A stretch of 64,000 bases of DNA, from assembly GCA_964602595.1 (NCBI GenBank), contig CAZRRO010000003.1, forward strand, positions 413,438 through 477,437, read 5' to 3'. This DNA comes from an uncultured Verrucomicrobiota bacterium. GTDB lineage: Bacteria > Verrucomicrobiota > Verrucomicrobiia > Limisphaerales > UBA9464. Shown here piece by piece: positions 9,925-32,184 of the stretch. A program made the translations under genes and the position numbers. The number at the start of each line of letters is the position of its first letter. The first letter of the stretch is position 1. The notes under the pieces are model-generated. The model did not search any database, had not been told where the DNA came from, and saw only the letters and a program-made list of their open reading frames with translations.

Positions 9925-12498
<2,574 letters not shown>

Positions 12499-12650
12499 TG
12501 AATCGAACCCAGGGCCGGCAAAATGGCCGCTCCTGCAGTTCCAAGCGGGAGCATGACCCAAGTCCGGACGTTTGGCACATAGTTTCGCCGCGGACCCGAT
12601 TTTGTCCGCGCTGGACGAAGGTGGGCGGACCCCGGCGCGACGAGCGAGCC

Positions 12651-13085
12651 TCAGTCGCGATTCGGACCTGGTTCGCTTGGCCGCGGGCGGCTCCGGAGGT
12701 AGTCGCCCAGCCGGGGATTCAGCCGGTCCGCCCACACGCCGTGATACCGCGGCTGCCGGATCTCCCACGCGACCAGCACAACCGTGACCGGGAGCTGGCC
12801 CAGCAGGACCGGGAGCAGCCGTAGGTCCCCGCGCGCGGCCCAGCCCGCCACGTTGAGGAGGAACAGCGCCGCCCACAGCAGTTCGAGTCGCCGGCACAGA
12901 CGGACGACGTTGCAGAACATGAAGAAGTGCCCGCCCACTAGCGGCGGCAGCCAGACCAGCTCGGGCACCGCCCGGGAAAACCACGCCGTCACGCCCGCGA
13001 GCCCCGCCAACACCCAGGCATCGGTCCGGAAGAACCGAAACCCCCAGTGGCCGGAGCGGTGGGCGGCGGTGAAGTCTGGGGTCAT
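12651..13085 (-). CDS. Small integral membrane protein, function unknown
   Basis: 144 aa with ATG at 13085. About four hydrophobic helices (WVLAGLAGVTAWF, VWLPPLVGGHFFMFCNVV, LLWAALFLLNVAGWA, LLPVLLGQLPVTVVLVAW). Same strand, lying between the ARH-fusion gene and rnr. Confidence 0.5.
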   Translation of the reverse strand: MTPDFTAAHRSGHWGFRFFRTDAWVLAGLAGVTAWFSRAVPELVWLPPLVGGHFFMFCNVVRLCRRLELLWAALFLLNVAGWAARGDLRLLPVLLGQLPVTVVLVAWEIRQPRYHGVWADRLNPRLGDYLRSRPRPSEPGPNRD

Positions 13086-13112
13086 GAACTTGGGGTGCCG
13101 TGAGGATGGGTC

Positions 13113-14489
13113 CTATCGGTCGAGATGCTGGAAAGGGATGGCCTCCCTCGCGGCCAACCATTCGGCAGGAATGCCTGCATGGCCGACCGCCAGCGCGACA
13201 ATCCCGCCGACAATGGCGCAGTTGGTGTCGATGTCGCCGGCGATGCTGGCTGTGGCCCAAAGGGCTTCGCGGTAGTCTTCGAGATGCCGGGCAGCGAGCC
13301 AGAGGCAGACCGGAACGGTGTCGGGGGCGCTGATGCGGCTGCCGTTGCCCAAGATTCGGCCGACATGGTCCGGCGAAGCGAGGAAGGGAATTCGAAGCGC
13401 GGCCGCGATGCCGCGGCGGGTTTCACCATCGGGCGTCAGGTCGTAAGCGGCTTCCAAGAGGTTCGGTGATGCCGGGGCCGGCTTCGTTTGCCTGGCGACC
13501 CATCCGGCCGCCAGTGCTACGGCCACGGCTCCGGCTTTTCCTTCGCGATGGGCGTGGGTCACTTCCGCCGACGCGATGGCTTCCGCCACCAAACGCCTTG
13601 GATCGTCCGCGAAATACGCTCCCAACGGAGCCACACGCATGGCGCCACCATTGCCCAACGAGCCCGTCCCATCGAATGCGCGGCCGGCCGCGTCGATCCA
13701 AGAGACGCCCTCGTGGATTTGACGAAGGATGCCGTGAGCGGTGCCGCCGTAACCCCGACGCGGGTCCAACATGTAGCGAGCGGCAAAGGCTTTTGCGAGG
13801 GATAGGCGCTCAATGCCGCCAAAGCGTTCCAGGGCTTCAACCACTGAAATCGCCATCACTGTGTCGTCGGTGACGAACCAGGGACTCGGCGGATCGAAGC
13901 GGCCGGCGATCCGGCTTCGGAATATGTCGTCGGGCCCGAAGAAGCATTCGCCAAACGCATCGCCCAGCGAGAGCCCCTCAAACGCCAGAGCCGCACGTTC
14001 CATCCGGGCCGCCTGGTCCGACGGAAGCCCGGCCGCAACTCCGCGCACGCCGTCCGGTTGGATCACTCGGTGTGCCGCGATCAGGGATCTGGCCTTACGC
14101 AGCCAACTGGTGGCAATCCACCCGCCGCCAAACGGCCCCACCCGCTCCCACGCCCAGCCGCCGAATCTCAGTTCGTTGATCATCGATTCCACCCGCTCGT
14201 GGTTGGAGGAATGGACGATCACCGGGCAAACCGGCTTTTGCTGCGCCAGCCAAGACGCCACTTCCAAACCGTCGCCCGGATCGCACGTCGCTCCGGGCAT
14301 TCGGTTGAGATCGTGATCCAGCGAGATCAACGAGGTGCGGTGAAGGAACGGCCCCGCCTCCGCCATGAACGCATGGGCCTCCCGCCAAAGACGCAACTCC
14401 GCCGCAGGTTCCAACTGGGCCACCGCCGCCTGAAATGCGGCGATCCGCTCGTCGTTGTCTTCGAGGATGAGGACGGCCGCTCGGTTCAT
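13113..14489 (-). CDS. Receiver-like domain fused to ADP-ribosylglycohydrolase (ARH/DraG family)
   Basis: The N-terminal ~130 aa have a flavodoxin/REC-like pattern (VLILEDND, LISLDHDL, VIVHSSN). The C-terminal ~300 aa carry ARH motifs (GLSLGDAFGE, FVTDDTVMA, GNGGAMRVAPLG, AGDIDTNCAIVGGIVA). The ATG at 14489 overlaps the kptA stop (ATGA). Confidence 0.85.
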   Translation of the reverse strand: MNRAAVLILEDNDERIAAFQAAVAQLEPAAELRLWREAHAFMAEAGPFLHRTSLISLDHDLNRMPGATCDPGDGLEVASWLAQQKPVCPVIVHSSNHERVESMINELRFGGWAWERVGPFGGGWIATSWLRKARSLIAAHRVIQPDGVRGVAAGLPSDQAARMERAALAFEGLSLGDAFGECFFGPDDIFRSRIAGRFDPPSPWFVTDDTVMAISVVEALERFGGIERLSLAKAFAARYMLDPRRGYGGTAHGILRQIHEGVSWIDAAGRAFDGTGSLGNGGAMRVAPLGAYFADDPRRLVAEAIASAEVTHAHREGKAGAVAVALAAGWVARQTKPAPASPNLLEAAYDLTPDGETRRGIAAALRIPFLASPDHVGRILGNGSRISAPDTVPVCLWLAARHLEDYREALWATASIAGDIDTNCAIVGGIVALAVGHAGIPAEWLAAREAIPFQHLDR

Positions 14490-15049
14490 GAGGAACTGGA
14501 GGTTGCGGGTGGCAACTCGATGAACTCCGGCGGCACTTGGTCGGTGAGCCAGACGTGGTTTGGCGTCAGGAAGAAGGCGTGGCCAGCGCGATGCATTTCG
14601 CCGGCCCGGATGGTCAGGAGGATCGGGCGACCTCGACGGGCACCAACCTTCAACGTCATTTCGGTTTCGGCGGAGAGGTGGACGTGATGACGCTGCATCT
14701 TGCAGAGACCCCGCTCGCGGATGGCGGGAAGGAACTGGGCGGCGGTGCCGTGGTAGAGGAGTTCAGGCGGAACCGCCGGAGCATGGTCCAACGCGACCTC
14801 GATCGAATGTCCTTGGTTAGCGCGGATGCGATGTCCGTCGGGACTGAGGGCGAAGCGCTGCTTGTCGCTCGTGCGGACGATCTCTTCGAGGTCGGTTCGG
14901 CTCAAAGCCCGCCCATGCTTGGCCAGTGCCGCGAGTAGGTCTTCCACGGCGATCCAGCCGGCGGAATCCAGGGTGATTCCAATGGTCTCAGGCTGGTGCC
15001 GCAGTACGAGGCTTAGGAACTTGCTCATGGAAACCATCTTGGATCTCAC
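14486..15049 (-). CDS. kptA: RNA 2'-phosphotransferase (Tpt1/KptA family)
   Basis: SKFLSLVLRHQPE..GI.LD..GW..V..LL, KQRFAL..DG.RIRANQGHS, LYHGT, HVHLS; length ~180 aa. The GTG at 15049 overlaps the upstream stop (GTGA). ATG alternatives are at 15037 and 15028. Confidence 0.9.
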   Translation of the reverse strand: MRSKMVSMSKFLSLVLRHQPETIGITLDSAGWIAVEDLLAALAKHGRALSRTDLEEIVRTSDKQRFALSPDGHRIRANQGHSIEVALDHAPAVPPELLYHGTAAQFLPAIRERGLCKMQRHHVHLSAETEMTLKVGARRGRPILLTIRAGEMHRAGHAFFLTPNHVWLTDQVPPEFIELPPATSSSS

Positions 15050-15402
15050 GCCATGCCCCCTGTGAATTCGCGGACGACTTCGATCTCGCCGACAATGTTC
15101 GCGTTGAACTCGGTCAGTTCCTCAGCGGGAACCCAGAGTTCCTGATGCACGCGGCTGCCGACGGTCTCCACCTTGAACTTGGAGAGGTAGTCGGAGCGAA
15201 CGGCGAAGCGGGTCACGTAGCCGGCTCCGGAATCCTTCACATTCCAGTCGCGGGCGATCTGGGCGGCGTATTCCTCGTTGAGCACCGGGTAGAAGATCGG
15301 TTGCTCCGGTAGGCGCGGCGGAAACGCTTTCATGCCGCTGGCGCGGATGAGCGCGAGTTCATTTGGGCCAACAGGGCGGTAAAGCGTGGTGGTCAGATTC
15401 AT
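15046..15402 (-). CDS. Conserved-looking 118-aa protein of unknown function embedded in the ADP-ribose operon
   Basis: MNLTTTLYRPVGPNELALIRASGMKAFPPRLPEQPIFYPVLNEEYAAQIARDWN... I do not recognise a named family. It has 4-nt overlaps with both neighbours (ATGA at 15399-15402, GTGA at 15046-15049) and good GC3 codon usage. Confidence 0.7.
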   Translation of the reverse strand: MNLTTTLYRPVGPNELALIRASGMKAFPPRLPEQPIFYPVLNEEYAAQIARDWNVKDSGAGYVTRFAVRSDYLSKFKVETVGSRVHQELWVPAEELTEFNANIVGEIEVVREFTGGMA

Positions 15403-15845
15403 GCCGTCTCCCTCCTTAGTTCATCCCGGATCGCCATGAGGATGAGCCCCAGCTTGTTCTTGCCGGTGCCATCGCCGCCGTCGCCCCAATAGCGGTCATT
15501 GCGGGTGTGCTCGATCAAATGGACTTCACCGGTGGAGAGGAGCAAGTCACGGAGCCGTGGATGTTGGGTGAACTTCGCTCGCACGGCCTCGGTCATGATG
15601 GCGTCCTTGACCGACTCCCAATCCCGGCGGAGCGGCTTCTTCCGGTCGCGACCGGCCCGTGCGGCGATCATGGGCGAATTGAGCAGGCGGATGCTTTCCT
15701 CGTGTTCCGTGCCCGGGAATTTCTGAGCCTGGAAATAGTGCTCTGCGGTCGGCCAGGTCCGGCCCTTCAACACGATGGGAAACGCGGCGAAATTCGAGAA
15801 CTCACCGTAGGGCTCTTCAACTCGGTAAAAGCGGATGGTGTTCAT
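15399..15845 (-). CDS. NADAR (YbiA/DUF1768) domain protein
   Basis: FYRVEEPYGEFSNF....I.L.G..WPTAEHYFQAQKF ... NDRYWGDGGDGTGKNKLG..LM..R; 148 aa. ATGA overlaps at both ends. Confidence 0.85.
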   Translation of the reverse strand: MNTIRFYRVEEPYGEFSNFAAFPIVLKGRTWPTAEHYFQAQKFPGTEHEESIRLLNSPMIAARAGRDRKKPLRRDWESVKDAIMTEAVRAKFTQHPRLRDLLLSTGEVHLIEHTRNDRYWGDGGDGTGKNKLGLILMAIRDELRRETA

Positions 15846-16678
15846 TGTCCGATTTGATTCAGGCGGGTGTTGAAAGCTTTCAGGACTGCCGAATTTGGCG
15901 ACTTGTCGAAGATGGCAAAGACCACCTTGGTGAAAGCAGTGGCAAAGGAGCCGTTGCCGAGCAGCAGACGAGCAAAGGCGTCGGCGACGAGGGAGGGATC
16001 ATTCCGGAACACTCCGCAACCCCACGCGCCAAGGATCAAGGTGTCCACCTGCTTGGCGACGGCGAGCTGCAGCACGAACTCGGCGCGCCGTCGGAGGGTT
16101 TCGGGCACGAGCGGCAGTTTGGCTGGTTCGTTGTTGGCCAAAGCCCCTGCATTGGGCGCCGGCGAAGTGATGACCGAGGCGATGGCGGGTTCATCCAACA
16201 GCTCACCGTTGTCATCCACGAAGAACGGGACGCCCGGCGAAAAGATGGCCGTGTGCTGATAGAGCAGGCAGCGGCTATTTCGATGACGTTCGTAGAACTG
16301 GGGCTGGCGTAGCAGACATGGATACAGTCCGGACGACCGCGCTAGGGACTCTTCCTGCGCTTGGGCTCCACCGAGAAAGCCGCCGCCGGGATTCTTGGCG
16401 GAGGCAAAGTTCAAGGCGGCGAGGTGTCCGCTCCCGACGCGATGCAATCGGACGATGGCTTCGACCGTGGACTCCGTTGTGACTTCAATCCCGGTCGATC
16501 CGCCGACGCGGACGAGTGTGGAACCGGACATCGGAGTTTCGTGGAAAGTGGTTCCGGCAAGAGCGGGCTGCATCATTGAATTCAGATCAACGGTTGCGCC
16601 GGTCCGGGTCTGGTAGTTTCCGCGCTCCAACAGTTCGAGTGTCTGCTCGGCGAGGCGGATGCGATGGTTTCGGTTCAT
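15842..16678 (-). CDS. Microbial-type poly(ADP-ribose) glycohydrolase-like macro-fold protein (TIGR02452/DUF2263-like)
   Basis: ALNFASAKNPGGGFLGGAQAQEESLARSS contains the PARG signature GGG-X7-QEE. It also has SPGVPFF and LILGAWGCGVF; 278 aa. Confidence 0.8.
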   Translation of the reverse strand: MNRNHRIRLAEQTLELLERGNYQTRTGATVDLNSMMQPALAGTTFHETPMSGSTLVRVGGSTGIEVTTESTVEAIVRLHRVGSGHLAALNFASAKNPGGGFLGGAQAQEESLARSSGLYPCLLRQPQFYERHRNSRCLLYQHTAIFSPGVPFFVDDNGELLDEPAIASVITSPAPNAGALANNEPAKLPLVPETLRRRAEFVLQLAVAKQVDTLILGAWGCGVFRNDPSLVADAFARLLLGNGSFATAFTKVVFAIFDKSPNSAVLKAFNTRLNQIGQ

Positions 16679-16693: not shown

Positions 16694-17383
16694 TTACAGC
16701 CAGAAGCTGAAGCCGCGTTTGCGGAGCTGCTGGTATTTGCGTTCGTCGAAGCGGTGGAGGCGGGCGGCGCGGTGGGCCACGTCTTGCTGGATCTCGCCGG
16801 TGTCCACCAGCAGGCCCATGCCGAGGATCTTTTTCCGGAAGTTGCGTTTATCGAGGCGCTCTTCGAGCACGACTTCGTAGAGGTGCTGGAGCTGGCCGAG
16901 GGTGAACTTGGCCGGCAGCAGCTCGAAGCCGATGGGTTCGTAGCGGACCTTGCCGCGCAGCCGGGCCAGTGCGGTGGCGAGGATGTGTTCGTGGTCGAAG
17001 GCAAGGTCGGGGGCGTCGTCCACGCTGAACCACGCGGCCTGTCGGGCGTCCGTGGCGGCCTGGGGCCTGTGGTCGGCCAGCGAGACGAGCGCGTAGTAGG
17101 CGACGCTGACGACGCGTTCGCGCGGGTCGCGGTCGGGCGCGCCGAAGGTGTAGAGCTGCTCCAGGAAGATGTCCTTCAAGCCGGTTTCCTCGGCGAGTTC
17201 GCGGCGGGCGGCGTCCTCCAGCGATTCCTCCACGCGGACGAAGCCGCCGGGGAGCGCCCATTTGCCCTCGAACGGCTTCAGGTCGCGCTGAATGAGCAGC
17301 ACCTTGAGGTCTCCCTCGTCGAAGCCGAAGACGACGCAGTCCACCGTGAGGGCGGCCCGGGGATATTCGTAGGTGTGTGGCAT
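16694..17383 (-). CDS. nrtR: Nudix hydrolase fused to C-terminal winged-helix domain (NrtR-type ADP-ribose-responsive regulator)
   Basis: Complete Nudix box [26 protein letters not shown]-terminal ~80 aa follows ([33 protein letters not shown]), as in NrtR wHTH domains. It is the first gene of the operon. Confidence 0.85.
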
Positions 17384-17393
17384 GGTTTTGTTC

Positions 17394-17421
17394 GGACACG
17401 TTGTTAGTGTCCATGCGACAC
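17394..17421 (-). promoter_or_regulatory. Candidate operator: interlocked inverted repeats GGACAC-N7-GTGTCC-N4-GACAC upstream of nrtR
   Basis: 17394-17399 ggacac / 17407-17412 gtgtcc (perfect, 7-nt spacer), and gtgtc 17407-17411 / gacac 17417-17421. It starts 10 nt upstream of the nrtR ATG, in the nrtR / zinc-ribbon divergent region. Confidence 0.35.
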
Positions 17422-17763
17422 GAAGTCAAGGCCGGCCTGCCCCAAGCCCATTGACAGTCCGGGCGGCGGGAGAGATGTGTCGAGGGTCTGTTGCAGCCTA
17501 AGCCGACCCGCCTTCCTGCGGATCGGCGCGGGGGAACCAAGTTCCTCAATGCGAATTGAGGGTGGGGCGCACGGCACCGGGTAACCGGGGCCAAGGTCAC
17601 TTCCAAGACCGAGCCCGTCAGCTAACTCCGTCGGCAGCTGGAAGGGCGATCCTCTGGGTCCGCAAGTTGCGGCGCCCACGTTCACCCCGTCTGAAACCGC
17701 GCGGCGGCCTCGTGCCGACGCGCACCGATGCGTCGCGCTCACCCGCGGCGCATCCCTGAAGTC

Positions 17764-18006
17764 ATGAGTGAACTGAAAACAAACGCGCCGCGAACCTGTC
17801 CCGAATGCGGCGGCTCCCACCTCTACCAATCAATCACGGCTTCGGCCGGCACGCATGGTCCGGCGTTGTTGCCGGGCCTGGGCGGTTTCCTGAGCTTCGC
17901 CAAGTTCCGGGTCGTGGTCTGTGCCGATTGCGGCCTGACCCGCTTCTACGCCGAGCCCGACGCCCGTGCCAAACTCAGCGGTTCCAGCCGCTGGTTTCGC
18001 CTCTGA
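17764..18006 (+). CDS. Small zinc-ribbon protein
   Basis: ATG at 17764 (MSELKTN...). Two CxxC pairs (CPECGG ... CADCG) are separated by 44 aa; 80 aa in total. It ends 28 nt before the SPFH gene. Confidence 0.55.
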   Translation: MSELKTNAPRTCPECGGSHLYQSITASAGTHGPALLPGLGGFLSFAKFRVVVCADCGLTRFYAEPDARAKLSGSSRWFRL

Positions 18007-18034
18007 ACTGAAACCCAAGAGAAAGGAACTCATC

Positions 18035-19807
18035 ATGAATGCTCCCGTCACGCTCCTGATCGTCCTGCTCTCGGTCCTTTTCGGCCTGAGCGCGCTCTAC
18101 TGGCTGCTCGGCCTGGTCCTCATCGACGAGCGCCAGGTCGGCATCGTCGTGAAACGCTTCGCCGCCACCTCGCTTGCCCCGGGTCGGCTGATCGCGCTCG
18201 CCGGTGAGGCGGGCTACCAGGCCGACACGCTCGCGCCCGGCCTGCACTTCGGCTACTGGCGTTGGCAATATCAGGTATTCAAGGCCCCGGTCACGGAAGT
18301 CTCGCCGGGTGAGATCGCGCTCGTCGTTTCCGCGGACGGCGCGCCCATTCCCGCGGAACGCATCCTCGGGCAGGTCGTGGACTGCGACAGCTTTCAGGAC
18401 GCCCGGAAGTTCCTCGTAAACGGCGGCGAACGCGGACGCCAGTTGGGCATCCTCACGGCCGGCACCTACCGCATCAACACGGCGCTCTTCACCGTGATCA
18501 CCGCCGCGCAGGCGGGCGCCCATGCCATGCACAGGGAGGCGCTGGAAGTTCAACGGGTCGCCCCCGACATGGTGGGTATCGTCACCACGCTGGACGGACG
18601 GCCCATCGAGGCCGGTGAAATTGCCGGCCCGACCATCGCGAACCACGACAACTTCCAGAACGCCCAGGCCTTCGTCACCGGCGGCGGCCGACGCGGCTTG
18701 CAGGAACAGGTGTTGCTCAGCGGCAGTTGGAACCTGAACCCGTGGTTCGTGCAGGTGGAACAGGTCCGCATGGTCGAGGTTCCCATCGGCTCCGTCGGCG
18801 TGGTCATCTCCTTCGTGGGTGCCGCGCACCTCGACGTGAGCGGCGCCGACTTCAAGCACGGCGACCTCGTCAACGTCGGTCACAAGGGCGTGTGGGTTTC
18901 GCCGCTTTATCCCGGCAAACATCCGCTGAACACCCGCATCATGAAGGTGGAACTCGTGCCCACCACGAACATCGTCCTCAACTGGGCCAACCGCACCGAG
19001 GCCCACCATTACGACGCCAAGCTCAACTCCATCACCGTGCGTTCGCGCGACGGCTTTGCCTTCAACCTCGACGTCTCGCAGATCATCCACGTCGGCGCGC
19101 CCGACGCGCCCAAGGTCATCTCGCGCGTCGGTTCCATGCAGAACCTCGTGGACCACGTCCTCCAGCCGATCGTCGGCAACTACTTCCGCAACTCGGCGCA
19201 GGACTACACCGTGCTCGACTTCCTCAGCGCGCGCAGCCACCGCCAGACCGAGGCGGCGGAACACATCCGCGTCGCCATCGGCGCCTATGACGTGCAGGCC
19301 ATCGACACGCTGATCGGTGACATCAATCCGCCCGCCGAACTCATGCAGACGCAGACCGACCGCAAGATCGCCGAGGAACAGCGCAAGACCTACGAGGTGC
19401 AGGAAGCCGCGCAGGTCCAGCGCCAGCAACTCGTCCGGCAGACCTCGCTCGCGGACATCCAGCAACAGGTCGTCGGCGCGGAACAGGGCGTGAACATCGC
19501 CGAATTGAAGTCCAACGCCCACATCAAGCAGGCCACCGGCGAGGCCGAAGCAACCCGCCTGCGGTCGCTCGGCGAGGCCCAGGCCATCCGCGCCACGGGC
19601 ACCGCCAAGGCCGAGGCCTACCGCGCCGGTGTCGAGGCGCTCGGCGCCCAAAGTTACACGCTCATGCAACTGATGCAGGTCGTCGGCGAGCGCAACGTCC
19701 GGATCGTGCCCGACGTGGCCGTGAACGGCGCCGGCGCCAACGGCGGCCTCGTCGAGGGCCTGCTCGGCGTGATGCTGAAGAAGGAGGCCGTCGGGAAGAC
19801 GGCATAA
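18035..19807 (+). CDS. SPFH/band-7 (flotillin-like) membrane protein
   Basis: ATG 18035 preceded by agaaaggaa. N-terminal TM (VTLLIVLLSVLFGLSALYWLLGLVLI) is followed by ERQVGIVVKRF (SPFH start). C-terminal E/A/Q-rich coiled coil is typical of flotillins. Confidence 0.85.
   Translation: MNAPVTLLIVLLSVLFGLSALYWLLGLVLIDERQVGIVVKRFAATSLAPGRLIALAGEAGYQADTLAPGLHFGYWRWQYQVFKAPVTEVSPGEIALVVSADGAPIPAERILGQVVDCDSFQDARKFLVNGGERGRQLGILTAGTYRINTALFTVITAAQAGAHAMHREALEVQRVAPDMVGIVTTLDGRPIEAGEIAGPTIANHDNFQNAQAFVTGGGRRGLQEQVLLSGSWNLNPWFVQVEQVRMVEVPIGSVGVVISFVGAAHLDVSGADFKHGDLVNVGHKGVWVSPLYPGKHPLNTRIMKVELVPTTNIVLNWANRTEAHHYDAKLNSITVRSRDGFAFNLDVSQIIHVGAPDAPKVISRVGSMQNLVDHVLQPIVGNYFRNSAQDYTVLDFLSARSHRQTEAAEHIRVAIGAYDVQAIDTLIGDINPPAELMQTQTDRKIAEEQRKTYEVQEAAQVQRQQLVRQTSLADIQQQVVGAEQGVNIAELKSNAHIKQATGEAEATRLRSLGEAQAIRATGTAKAEAYRAGVEALGAQSYTLMQLMQVVGERNVRIVPDVAVNGAGANGGLVEGLLGVMLKKEAVGKTA

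Positions 19808-30701: not shown

Positions 30702-32184
<1,483 letters not shown>

Follow-up and report, generated by a model that had tools for sequence, protein, structure and literature searches.

Bacterial PARGs, ARHs, NADARs and macrodomains have been called enzymes with unexplored physiological substrates, despite their defined activities as erasers of ADP-ribosylated RNA and DNA (PMC11833690). The closest described gene systems are the ARG-centric, eraser-only operons controlled by NrtR/Nudix or WYL regulators, in which a repressor combining a Nudix domain with a helix-turn-helix accompanies an ADP-ribosylglycohydrolase (ARG, here ARH) and, optionally, a Macro or NADAR protein, and for which induction by ADP-ribose has been proposed (Iyer, Burroughs et al. 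2022, PMC9503650). The NrtR-linked eraser operons have been explained as a defence against foreign ADP-ribosyltransferases (ARTs), no cognate writer having been seen (PMC9503650). Here we analyse a similar operon in a 64,000-nt stretch of DNA (the window) from an uncultured Verrucomicrobiota bacterium (GenBank assembly GCA_964602595.1, contig CAZRRO010000003.1). Its genes all lie on the minus strand in the order NrtR-PARG-NADAR-ORF118-KptA-cREC.ARH, and they either overlap or are at most 15 nt apart. ORF118, an open reading frame (ORF) for a protein of 118 residues, is predicted from its modelled structure to represent a new, unnamed family within the known ART superfamily. The operon thus probably carries its own writer, consuming nicotinamide adenine dinucleotide (NAD), beside its erasers of ADP-ribose.

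Predicted fold of ORF118

An AlphaFold2 (AF2) model of ORF118 was built on an alignment of 31 sequences, the rows of which are 68-88% identical to the query. The model has a predicted local distance difference test score (pLDDT) of 92.9 and a predicted TM-score (pTM) of 0.85, and all five models score above 90 in pLDDT. Six main β-strands (residues 4-11, 36-39, 60-69, 77-80, 87-92 and 103-114) combine with helices at residues 13-21, 43-58, 70-73 and 93-101.

A Foldseek comparison of the predicted structure with the PDB, a check proposed in the preliminary description of this locus, gave ART folds as its only supported matches. The 24 best matches all belong to the ART superfamily, and at a probability of 0.3 or higher only ARTs, from at least six families, were returned; unrelated folds, the first of which were ACT domains, appeared only at probabilities of 0.08 or below. 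The best E-value (1.3e-3, probability 1.0) was obtained for Tpt1/KptA from several archaea, and the best TM-scores (0.61 for the query and 0.52 for the target, with a root-mean-square deviation of 2.8 Å) for the toxin RhsP2 (PDB code 7RT7). Further matches were the DUF952 protein CC0527 (PDB code 2O0Q; E = 3e-2, TM-score 0.46), TreTu, the PARP domain of RCD1 and PltA, with diphtheria toxin lower in the list. In a viral library, a member of the ORF118 family fused to a GIY-YIG domain came first, and KptA, PARP and rifampin ART were among the weaker matches.

On this model ORF118 very probably has an ART fold. The preliminary description had singled it out as the one component of the operon without a predicted chemistry; it is the sole member without annotation, but the model endows it with an ART fold and a conserved Arg-Tyr-Glu (R-Y-E) triad. 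At the level of sequence, an hhalign comparison of the family with a local KptA profile gave a probability below 1%, a weak negative given that the KptA alignment is shallow. A likeness seen by eye between 'LYRPV...IRASG' in ORF118 and 'LYHGT...IRERG' in KptA is a suggestion only, for which hhalign gave no signal.

Conserved residues and candidate active site

Conservation was counted over 150 representatives of clusters formed at 50% identity. The catalytic triads of ARTs sit on strands 1, 2 and 5 (PMC13617354), and three of the most conserved residues of the family occupy the positions expected for them: R9 lies on predicted strand 1 (Arg in 142 of 144 sequences), Y38 on predicted strand 2 within the motif QPIFYPV (Tyr in 150/150), and E88 at the start of predicted strand 5 within the motif HQELWVP (Glu in 149/150). 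An R-Y-E triad falls outside the three classical ART triads, H-H-h, H-Y-[EDQ] and R-S-E. It has been validated experimentally in RhsP2 (R1490/Y1524/E1576; PMC12340436) and was assigned, after RhsP2, to TreThr as well (PMC13617354). The triad residues are 29 and 50 residues apart in ORF118 and 34 and 52 apart in RhsP2. By analogy, we propose R9 as the Arg that binds the NAD+ pyrophosphate (RhsP2 R1490), Y38 as the Tyr that stacks on the nicotinamide (RhsP2 Y1524) and E88 as the catalytic Glu.

High conservation extends to E15 (146/147), R30 (150/150), Q34 (149/150), Y45 (149/150), W53 (146/150), N54 (148/150), W90 (148/150) and N100 (144/147). The family has no conserved Cys, and the position two before E88 is a His in 77% of its members. 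The acidic character of the family (median isoelectric point (pI) 5.3, net charge -3) speaks against a cationic, nucleic-acid-binding surface beside the active site, although the invariant R30 may, together with the conserved R51 and R65, form a local patch.

Family size and distribution

ORF118 matches no Pfam-A family (hmmscan, E ≤ 1), only noise in NCBIfam, nothing in PADLOC or PHROGs, and no PDB sequence with either phmmer or a profile; in these collections it has no motif that can be named, just as had been noted before. When its homologues are clustered at 90% identity, at least 8000 clusters result. The 120 best listed (E ≤ 5e-50) are almost all 112-147 residues long, mostly 115-125, contain no Pfam domain, and are unnamed or called 'hypothetical protein', as they are in RefSeq plasmid records. 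HMMER, run exhaustively against 1.84 billion representatives, returned 2887 clusters (50% identity) at E ≤ 1e-3, and 434 at E ≤ 1e-30. With at least 8000 homologous clusters, ORF118 is far beyond a chance ORF.

When one genome per species was scanned, at least 591 species carried a homologue, among them members of the Verrucomicrobiota, Bacteroidota, Acidobacteriota, Chloroflexota and Planctomycetota, Streptomyces and other Actinomycetota, and Nostoc. Identity to ORF118 across phyla is 65-78%, which is unusually high for such distances. In the literature searched we found no description of the family, although de Souza & Aravind 2012 may mention it.

Three huge phages (640-735 kb) also encode homologues, which include those of LR756501 and LR756502 (L096:6001-7166 and L095:5818-7037). 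In one huge phage a gene for an R2K ATP-grasp protein overlaps the homologue and is followed by one for a ClpB-like ATPase; in another, the homologue is followed by an ORF resembling class-I Trp/Tyr-tRNA synthetases, and an ORF with a YqeY domain lies nearby.

Several known identities were considered for ORF118 and rejected. It has no Pfam match of any kind, DUF4433 included, and is accordingly not a DarT; nor, with no Pfam-A family at E ≤ 1, does it belong to DUF952, DUF4291, RES or Arr. Membership of KptA is contradicted by the absence of a PF01885 match, by the single domain of 118 residues and by a triad that is R-Y-E and not H-H-h. The ARPP proteins have an absolutely conserved Cys and a β-meander or barrel (PMC9503650), whereas ORF118 has no conserved Cys and an α/β ART fold. 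With toxins of the RhsP2/TreThr type it shares the triad, but it is a free-standing ORF outside any delivered Rhs or type VI secretion context and has no adjacent immunity gene.

Gene neighbourhoods and domain fusions

Gene neighbourhoods were counted over about 4 kb in the best 80 species loci of at least 600 matched stretches. Nineteen of the 80 loci carry a gene for NrtR, ARH, KptA, Macro, NADAR, PARG, NAPRTase, PncA, NadE or DUF4291. In the Verrucomicrobiota the neighbours are NAPRTase and ARH (11 loci each), KptA (9), NrtR (7), PncA-type isochorismatase and Macro (6 each), NadE (5), DUF4291 (4) and NADAR (3), and the homologue often stands directly upstream of KptA. An ARH gene adjoins the homologue in Nostoc and Chloroflexi, NADAR does so in Bacteroidota and Deinococcus, and NAPRTase in a metagenome-assembled genome from soil. 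Homologues thus recur in other ADP-ribose and NAD operons and as parts of fusion proteins, and the refutation named in the preliminary description, their absence from other ADP-ribose operons, fails.

The order most like that of the window is NrtR-PARG-homologue-[ARH+KptA]-ARH-cREC.ARH at locus L099, where a single chain of 496 residues joining ARH and Tpt1/KptA (L099:5363-6853) directly follows the homologue with a 4-nt overlap. Other arrangements are NadE...homologue-NrtR-Band_7...ARH...PncA (L097) and HNH-homologue-R2K ATP-grasp-DUF4238-RtcB (L101). At L089 and L097 the homologues are found among restriction-modification and integrase genes. In most Streptomyces and Acidobacteriota loci and many of those in Bacteroidota, the homologue has no ADP-ribose or NAD neighbour and is often alone. 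Outside the Verrucomicrobia, its translationally coupled neighbours are mostly without a Pfam match.

In single chains, the ORF118-like domain follows ARH, NADAR, KptA (P0143), Nudix, NadR, Ham1 or R2K ATP-grasp, and it precedes Macro or Nudix. One sequence of 262 residues (P0214) begins with a hydrophobic segment, continues with the ORF118-like domain and ends in a domain like the C-terminal domain (CTD) of ribosomal protein L7/L12. The L7/L12 CTD binds translational GTPases, and this one sequence is a possible hint at a translation factor as the target.

Two further protein families accompany the homologues. Genes for DUF4291 lie near them at L035:5333-5956 and L038:1390-2043 and also at L017, L034 and L067, the DUF4291 start at L035 overlapping the stop of the homologue by 4 nt; given this co-localization, some operons would hold up to three ART-like genes (ORF118, DUF4291 and KptA). 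The second, 'unk160', is an all-α family of 160 residues with 52 members, mostly from Bacteroidota (L003:4517-4999, plus strand, and also L008, L031 and L058). It is translationally coupled upstream of homologues, and in P0202 it is fused C-terminally to the domain. Its AF2 model reaches a pLDDT of 96.5, yet it matches no PDB structure and no Pfam family, and gives no functional lead; unk160 may be a regulator, inhibitor or targeting partner of the ART-like domain.

Operon organization and control region

The coordinates of the genes and other features of the window are given in Table 1. Pfam and NCBIfam matches agree with the earlier assignment of the genes flanking ORF118 to NADAR and Tpt1/KptA. 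The start of ORF118 overlaps the NADAR stop as first described, the ATG (15400-15402) sharing the letters ATGA with the TGA (15399-15401). At the other end, the claimed overlap of the ORF118 stop with the KptA gene exists only if KptA begins at the GTG at 15047-15049, where the two share GTGA. An alternative in-frame ATG at 15035-15037, which was chosen when the identical public contig was annotated (183 residues), leaves a gap of 8 nt. Both starts are compatible with the Pfam and NCBIfam family models and are equally plausible. The overlapping codons, one pair of which is uncertain, argue for translational coupling and not for the stoichiometric co-expression that had been suggested. The peptide first reported for ORF118 was correct as far as it went, with the last five residues (TGGMA) left off. 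Further along, the start of cREC.ARH overlaps the KptA stop.

Table 1. Features of the window, in order of position
Feature	Position	Strand	Description and evidence
RNase R ORF	9925-13260	minus	1111 aa as called; OB, CSD2, RNB and S1 domains
Unassigned ORF	12651-13085		144 aa; no Pfam match
cREC.ARH	13113-14489	minus	458 aa, last gene of the operon; cyclic-phosphate-processing receiver (cREC) fused to ADP-ribosylglycohydrolase; PF20274, PF03747
Tpt1/KptA	14486-15049	minus	RNA 2'-phosphotransferase, 187 or 183 aa; PF01885 (E 7e-50), NF002014
ORF118	15046-15402	minus	118 aa; predicted single-domain ART-fold protein of a new family
E88 codon	15139-15141	minus	GAA
Y38 codon	15289-15291	minus	TAC
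R9 codon	15376-15378	minus	CGC
Shine-Dalgarno sequence of ORF118	15411-15417	minus	AAGGAGG, strong; within the 3' end of NADAR, 8 nt before the ORF118 ATG
NADAR	15399-15845	minus	148 aa; PF08719 (E 3e-39), TIGR02464
PARG	15842-16678	minus	bacterial-type (macrodomain), 278 aa; PF10021/TIGR02452
NrtR	16694-17383	minus	first gene of the operon; Nudix and winged helix, ADP-ribose-responsive repressor; PF21906, PF00293, NF050029
Putative NrtR operator	17405-17429	minus	TTGACTTCGTGTCGCATGGACACTA; 25-nt element upstream of nrtR, overlapping a -35-like TTGACT; comparison of upstream regions
c-di-AMP riboswitch	17485-17651	plus	ydaO-type; 53 bits against a gathering score of 38
Zn-ribbon ORF	17728-18006		92 aa
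SPFH/Band_7 gene	17966-19807		613 aa
tRNA-Ala (CGC)	32109-32184	minus	sole tRNA of the window

The putative operator contains the palindrome T[AC]GTGT-N7-ACAC[TC]A, which is conserved ahead of nrtR in six related loci and occurs a single time in the window, where no chance match is expected. If NrtR binds this element, as we infer from the sequence, ORF118 would come under the control of ADP-ribose. A sigma-70 promoter scan of the operon region gave no match. PncA, PncB, NadE, Macro and DUF4291 have no homologues within the 64 kb of the window.

Of the erasers in the operon, bacterial-type PARG acts on 2'-O-glycosidic and phosphate-end linkages of ADP-ribose, NADAR on N-glycosidic linkages to guanine and cytosine, and ARH on phosphate-end or protein linkages (PMC11833690, PMC12945103), so that the three together cover the known nucleic-acid linkages, three in number. 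PARGs of the bacterial type also reverse the 2'-O-ADP-ribosylation of RNA by RhsP2 (PMC11833690).

Beside nrtR, the divergent intergenic region contains a riboswitch for cyclic di-AMP (c-di-AMP), which sits upstream of the Zn-ribbon ORF and the SPFH/Band_7 gene; L097 likewise has a Band_7 gene, placed after NrtR and the ORF118 homologue. Downstream of the operon and on the same strand lies the gene for RNase R. Its ORF as called has about 270 codons ahead of the first recognized domain, and translation probably begins well inside this ORF. The unassigned ORF lies between the RNase R and ARH genes.

Proposed function and alternative explanations

The reading that we favour, with moderate confidence and on the strength of the model, is that ORF118 is a cytoplasmic, non-toxin, single-domain ART that uses NAD+. 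The gene and its conservation, the predicted fold, the positions of the triad, and the genomic and fusion links suggest that ORF118 would bind NAD+ and transfer ADP-ribose, with its conserved residues acting as follows. R9 on strand 1 would hold the NAD+ pyrophosphate, Y38 on strand 2 would stack on the nicotinamide, probably with help from the invariant Y45, and E88 at the start of strand 5 would stabilize the oxocarbenium transition state. Nicotinamide would leave, and ADP-ribose would pass to a conserved cellular acceptor. The PARG, NADAR and cREC.ARH proteins of the operon would then dismantle the adduct or a soluble ADP-ribose derivative, and the freed ADP-ribose would relieve the repression that NrtR exerts at the putative operator ahead of its own gene. 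Nicotinamide would, in related genomes, be recycled by the neighbouring PncA, PncB and NadE.

Among possible acceptors, water or phosphate comes last in our ranking; above it, and about level with each other, stand an RNA end or a nucleotide hydroxyl or phosphate and a conserved protein of the translation machinery. In favour of RNA or a nucleotide are the likeness to RhsP2 and KptA and the KptA, RtcB, LigT and cREC neighbours. A target in the translation apparatus is suggested by the links to R2K ATP-grasp proteins, the fusion to an L7/L12 CTD and the structural matches to TreTu and diphtheria toxin; the R2K ATP-grasp clade includes the translation-initiation regulator CDC123, and its members are predicted peptide-tag ligases acting on proteins (PMC4431377). 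The fusions to Nudix and NadR and the salvage neighbours would fit mere cleavage of NAD+.

Several observations weigh against an NAD+-using transferase. The ART assignment relies on a modelled structure, for which the Foldseek E-values are only about 1e-3, and none of the searches made links ORF118 to any ART family by sequence or profile. The clustering of R9, Y38 and E88 in one cleft and their superposition on RhsP2 are deduced from secondary structure and spacing. An RNA acceptor becomes less attractive because the family is acidic, whereas the RNA-binding face of RhsP2 is cationic and the pI of KptA is 9.35. A writer that consumes NAD+ under a repressor released by ADP-ribose would set up a positive feedback, the purpose of which is not obvious. 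Finally, about 75% of the loci examined have no ADP-ribose or NAD gene nearby, and for this reason the family is not an obligate partner of KptA or NADAR.

The doubts about the assignment itself could mean that it is a modelling artefact and that fold and function are unrelated to ARTs. The Foldseek E-values are marginal (1e-3 to 1e-1), the TM-score to Tpt1 is only 0.44, sequence and profile support are lacking, and the alignment behind the model is shallow in diversity. We nevertheless consider an artefact improbable, since the five models agree in their high pLDDT, no fold other than that of ARTs is matched with appreciable probability, the three canonical catalytic strands are exactly those on which the conserved polar residues lie, and the independent genomic and fusion context is one of ADP-ribose and NAD throughout. 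The same conserved residues bear on the idea that the domain is a non-catalytic, ART-like module, either a reader of ADP-ribose or NAD+ or a specificity or regulatory subunit docking on KptA or NADAR, a specificity factor being one of the two roles suggested in the preliminary description. Its translational coupling to NADAR and possibly to KptA, the single proteins in which the domain is fused to one or the other, and its frequent place directly upstream of KptA in Verrucomicrobia would all suit an adaptor. However, an adaptor has no need for a Glu in the catalytic position or for a triad Arg and Tyr conserved to at least 99%, which are typical of active ARTs; moreover, most members have neither KptA nor NADAR nearby, and the fusion partners are numerous and mutually unrelated. 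We therefore give a non-catalytic module little credence and, given the ART fold and the R-Y-E triad, think it likelier that ORF118 is itself an enzyme than that it is a specificity factor for KptA or NADAR.

If ORF118 is an enzyme, it might be an NAD+ glycohydrolase or phosphorylase that works on soluble metabolites only, with ADP-ribose or, as for RES/MbcT, ADP-ribose-1''-phosphate as its product and no macromolecular target. The product would feed the Nudix, Macro and NAD-salvage enzymes and signal to NrtR. NADases and NAD+ phosphorylases with an ART fold are known (PMC9503650), and the fusions to a Nudix domain of the ADP-ribose-pyrophosphatase type and to NadR (NMNAT + ribosylnicotinamide kinase), the NAPRTase, PncA, NadE and Macro neighbours counted above, and an acidic surface without an accessory targeting domain are in keeping with such an activity. 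On the other hand, constitutive NADase activity in the cytoplasm would be toxic, yet an inhibitor gene is missing from most loci; ARH, NADAR and PARG act on conjugates, and their fusion or adjacency suits a transferase better; and the interphylum identity, which extends over the whole surface, exceeds what a small-molecule pocket requires. On balance, we think a purely metabolic enzyme rather unlikely. ORF118 might also serve as a toxin or in defence, arresting growth as the ARTs DarT, RhsP2, TreThr or CmdT do, with phages or competitors as its targets and the adjacent erasers as its antitoxins. Both characterized R-Y-E ARTs are RNA-targeting toxins, RhsP2 gives the best TM-score and TreTu is matched as well, some homologues lie among restriction-modification and integrase genes (L089, L097) or in the three huge phages, and NADAR and Macro proteins serve as antitoxins in DarT systems. 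But ORF118 has no delivery domain (Rhs, PAAR or signal peptide) and no PADLOC match, most loci lack a conserved partner gene or antidote, the Verrucomicrobia homologues are embedded with housekeeping genes of NAD salvage, and conflict proteins evolve fast, whereas this family is extremely conserved across phyla. A role as a toxin thus seems to us to have a poor chance.

Were ORF118 an NAD+-using ART, with 118 residues among the smallest ART domains, its family would bring a non-toxin into the rare R-Y-E class for the first time, and several thousand 'hypothetical proteins' would become an annotatable family. It is a concrete and easily testable candidate for a writer inside eraser operons and fused to erasers. 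A wider reading, which we offer as speculation and consider unlikely, is that the family is the missing endogenous writer of a physiological and reversible bacterial ADP-ribosylation, with RNA (at 2'-hydroxyls or phosphate ends) or else a core component of translation as its substrate, which orphan PARG, ARH, NADAR and Macro proteins would erase, NrtR would control and NAD salvage would be coupled to. Many eraser-only operons, now read as repair kits against phages or toxins, would in that case be complete writer-eraser systems. Should the domain prove to be no more than an NADase or a module for binding, a new family would still have been annotated and NrtR regulons would be better understood.

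Comparison with known systems

Among the proteins matched by structure, RhsP2 from P. aeruginosa, an ART that modifies the 2'-OH of RNA, is the closest by TM-score. Its toxin domain is compact (143 residues) and similar in size to ORF118, and the two share the unusual hybrid Arg-Tyr-Glu triad, which is similarly spaced and, by secondary-structure position, lies on strands 1, 2 and 5 in both. The product of RhsP2 is erased by a bacterial-type PARG, and a gene of this type lies two upstream of ORF118. However, the RhsP2 domain forms the tip of a polymorphic Rhs toxin of 1614 residues that has a cognate immunity protein, whereas ORF118 is free-standing and conserved and has no immunity gene. RhsP2 presents a cationic face to RNA and has an essential Lys two before the Glu, where the acidic ORF118 family mostly has a His. 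The two are 14% identical, with no detectable sequence homology.

The ART lobe of Tpt1/KptA (PDB codes 8TG3, 1WFX and 9LD4), for which the best Foldseek E-value was obtained, has the minimal ART core in common with ORF118, and the KptA gene adjoins that of ORF118 here and in at least nine related loci. KptA, however, has an N-terminal winged-helix lobe for RNA, an R-H-R-R tetrad and the H-H-h motif (PMC8120803), while ORF118 comprises the ART-like lobe only, with R-Y-E, and has neither a match to Pfam PTS_2-RNA nor a profile-profile similarity to KptA, judged with a shallow profile. The DUF952 protein of Caulobacter resembles ORF118 in being a stand-alone, single-domain ART-like fold of about 115 residues, but its site is of the H-H-h type and its TM-score is below that of RhsP2. 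DUF4291 is likewise an uncharacterized, conserved family with a predicted, atypical ART-like fold, found in neighbourhoods with Nudix, Macro, ARH and KptA (Krysinska et al. 2025, PMC12522546). It differs from ORF118 in its length of about 200 residues, its QAY and WVK motifs and a Gln at motif III.

At the level of gene organization, the window operon is most like the eraser-only systems in its Nudix repressor, its ARH and its NADAR, and it is without the rhodanese phosphatase, chaperones and ARPP of those systems. Those systems are defined by having no coupled ART and are proposed to act against viral ARTs (PMC9503650), whereas the operon described here has KptA and, next to it, a predicted second protein with an ART fold.

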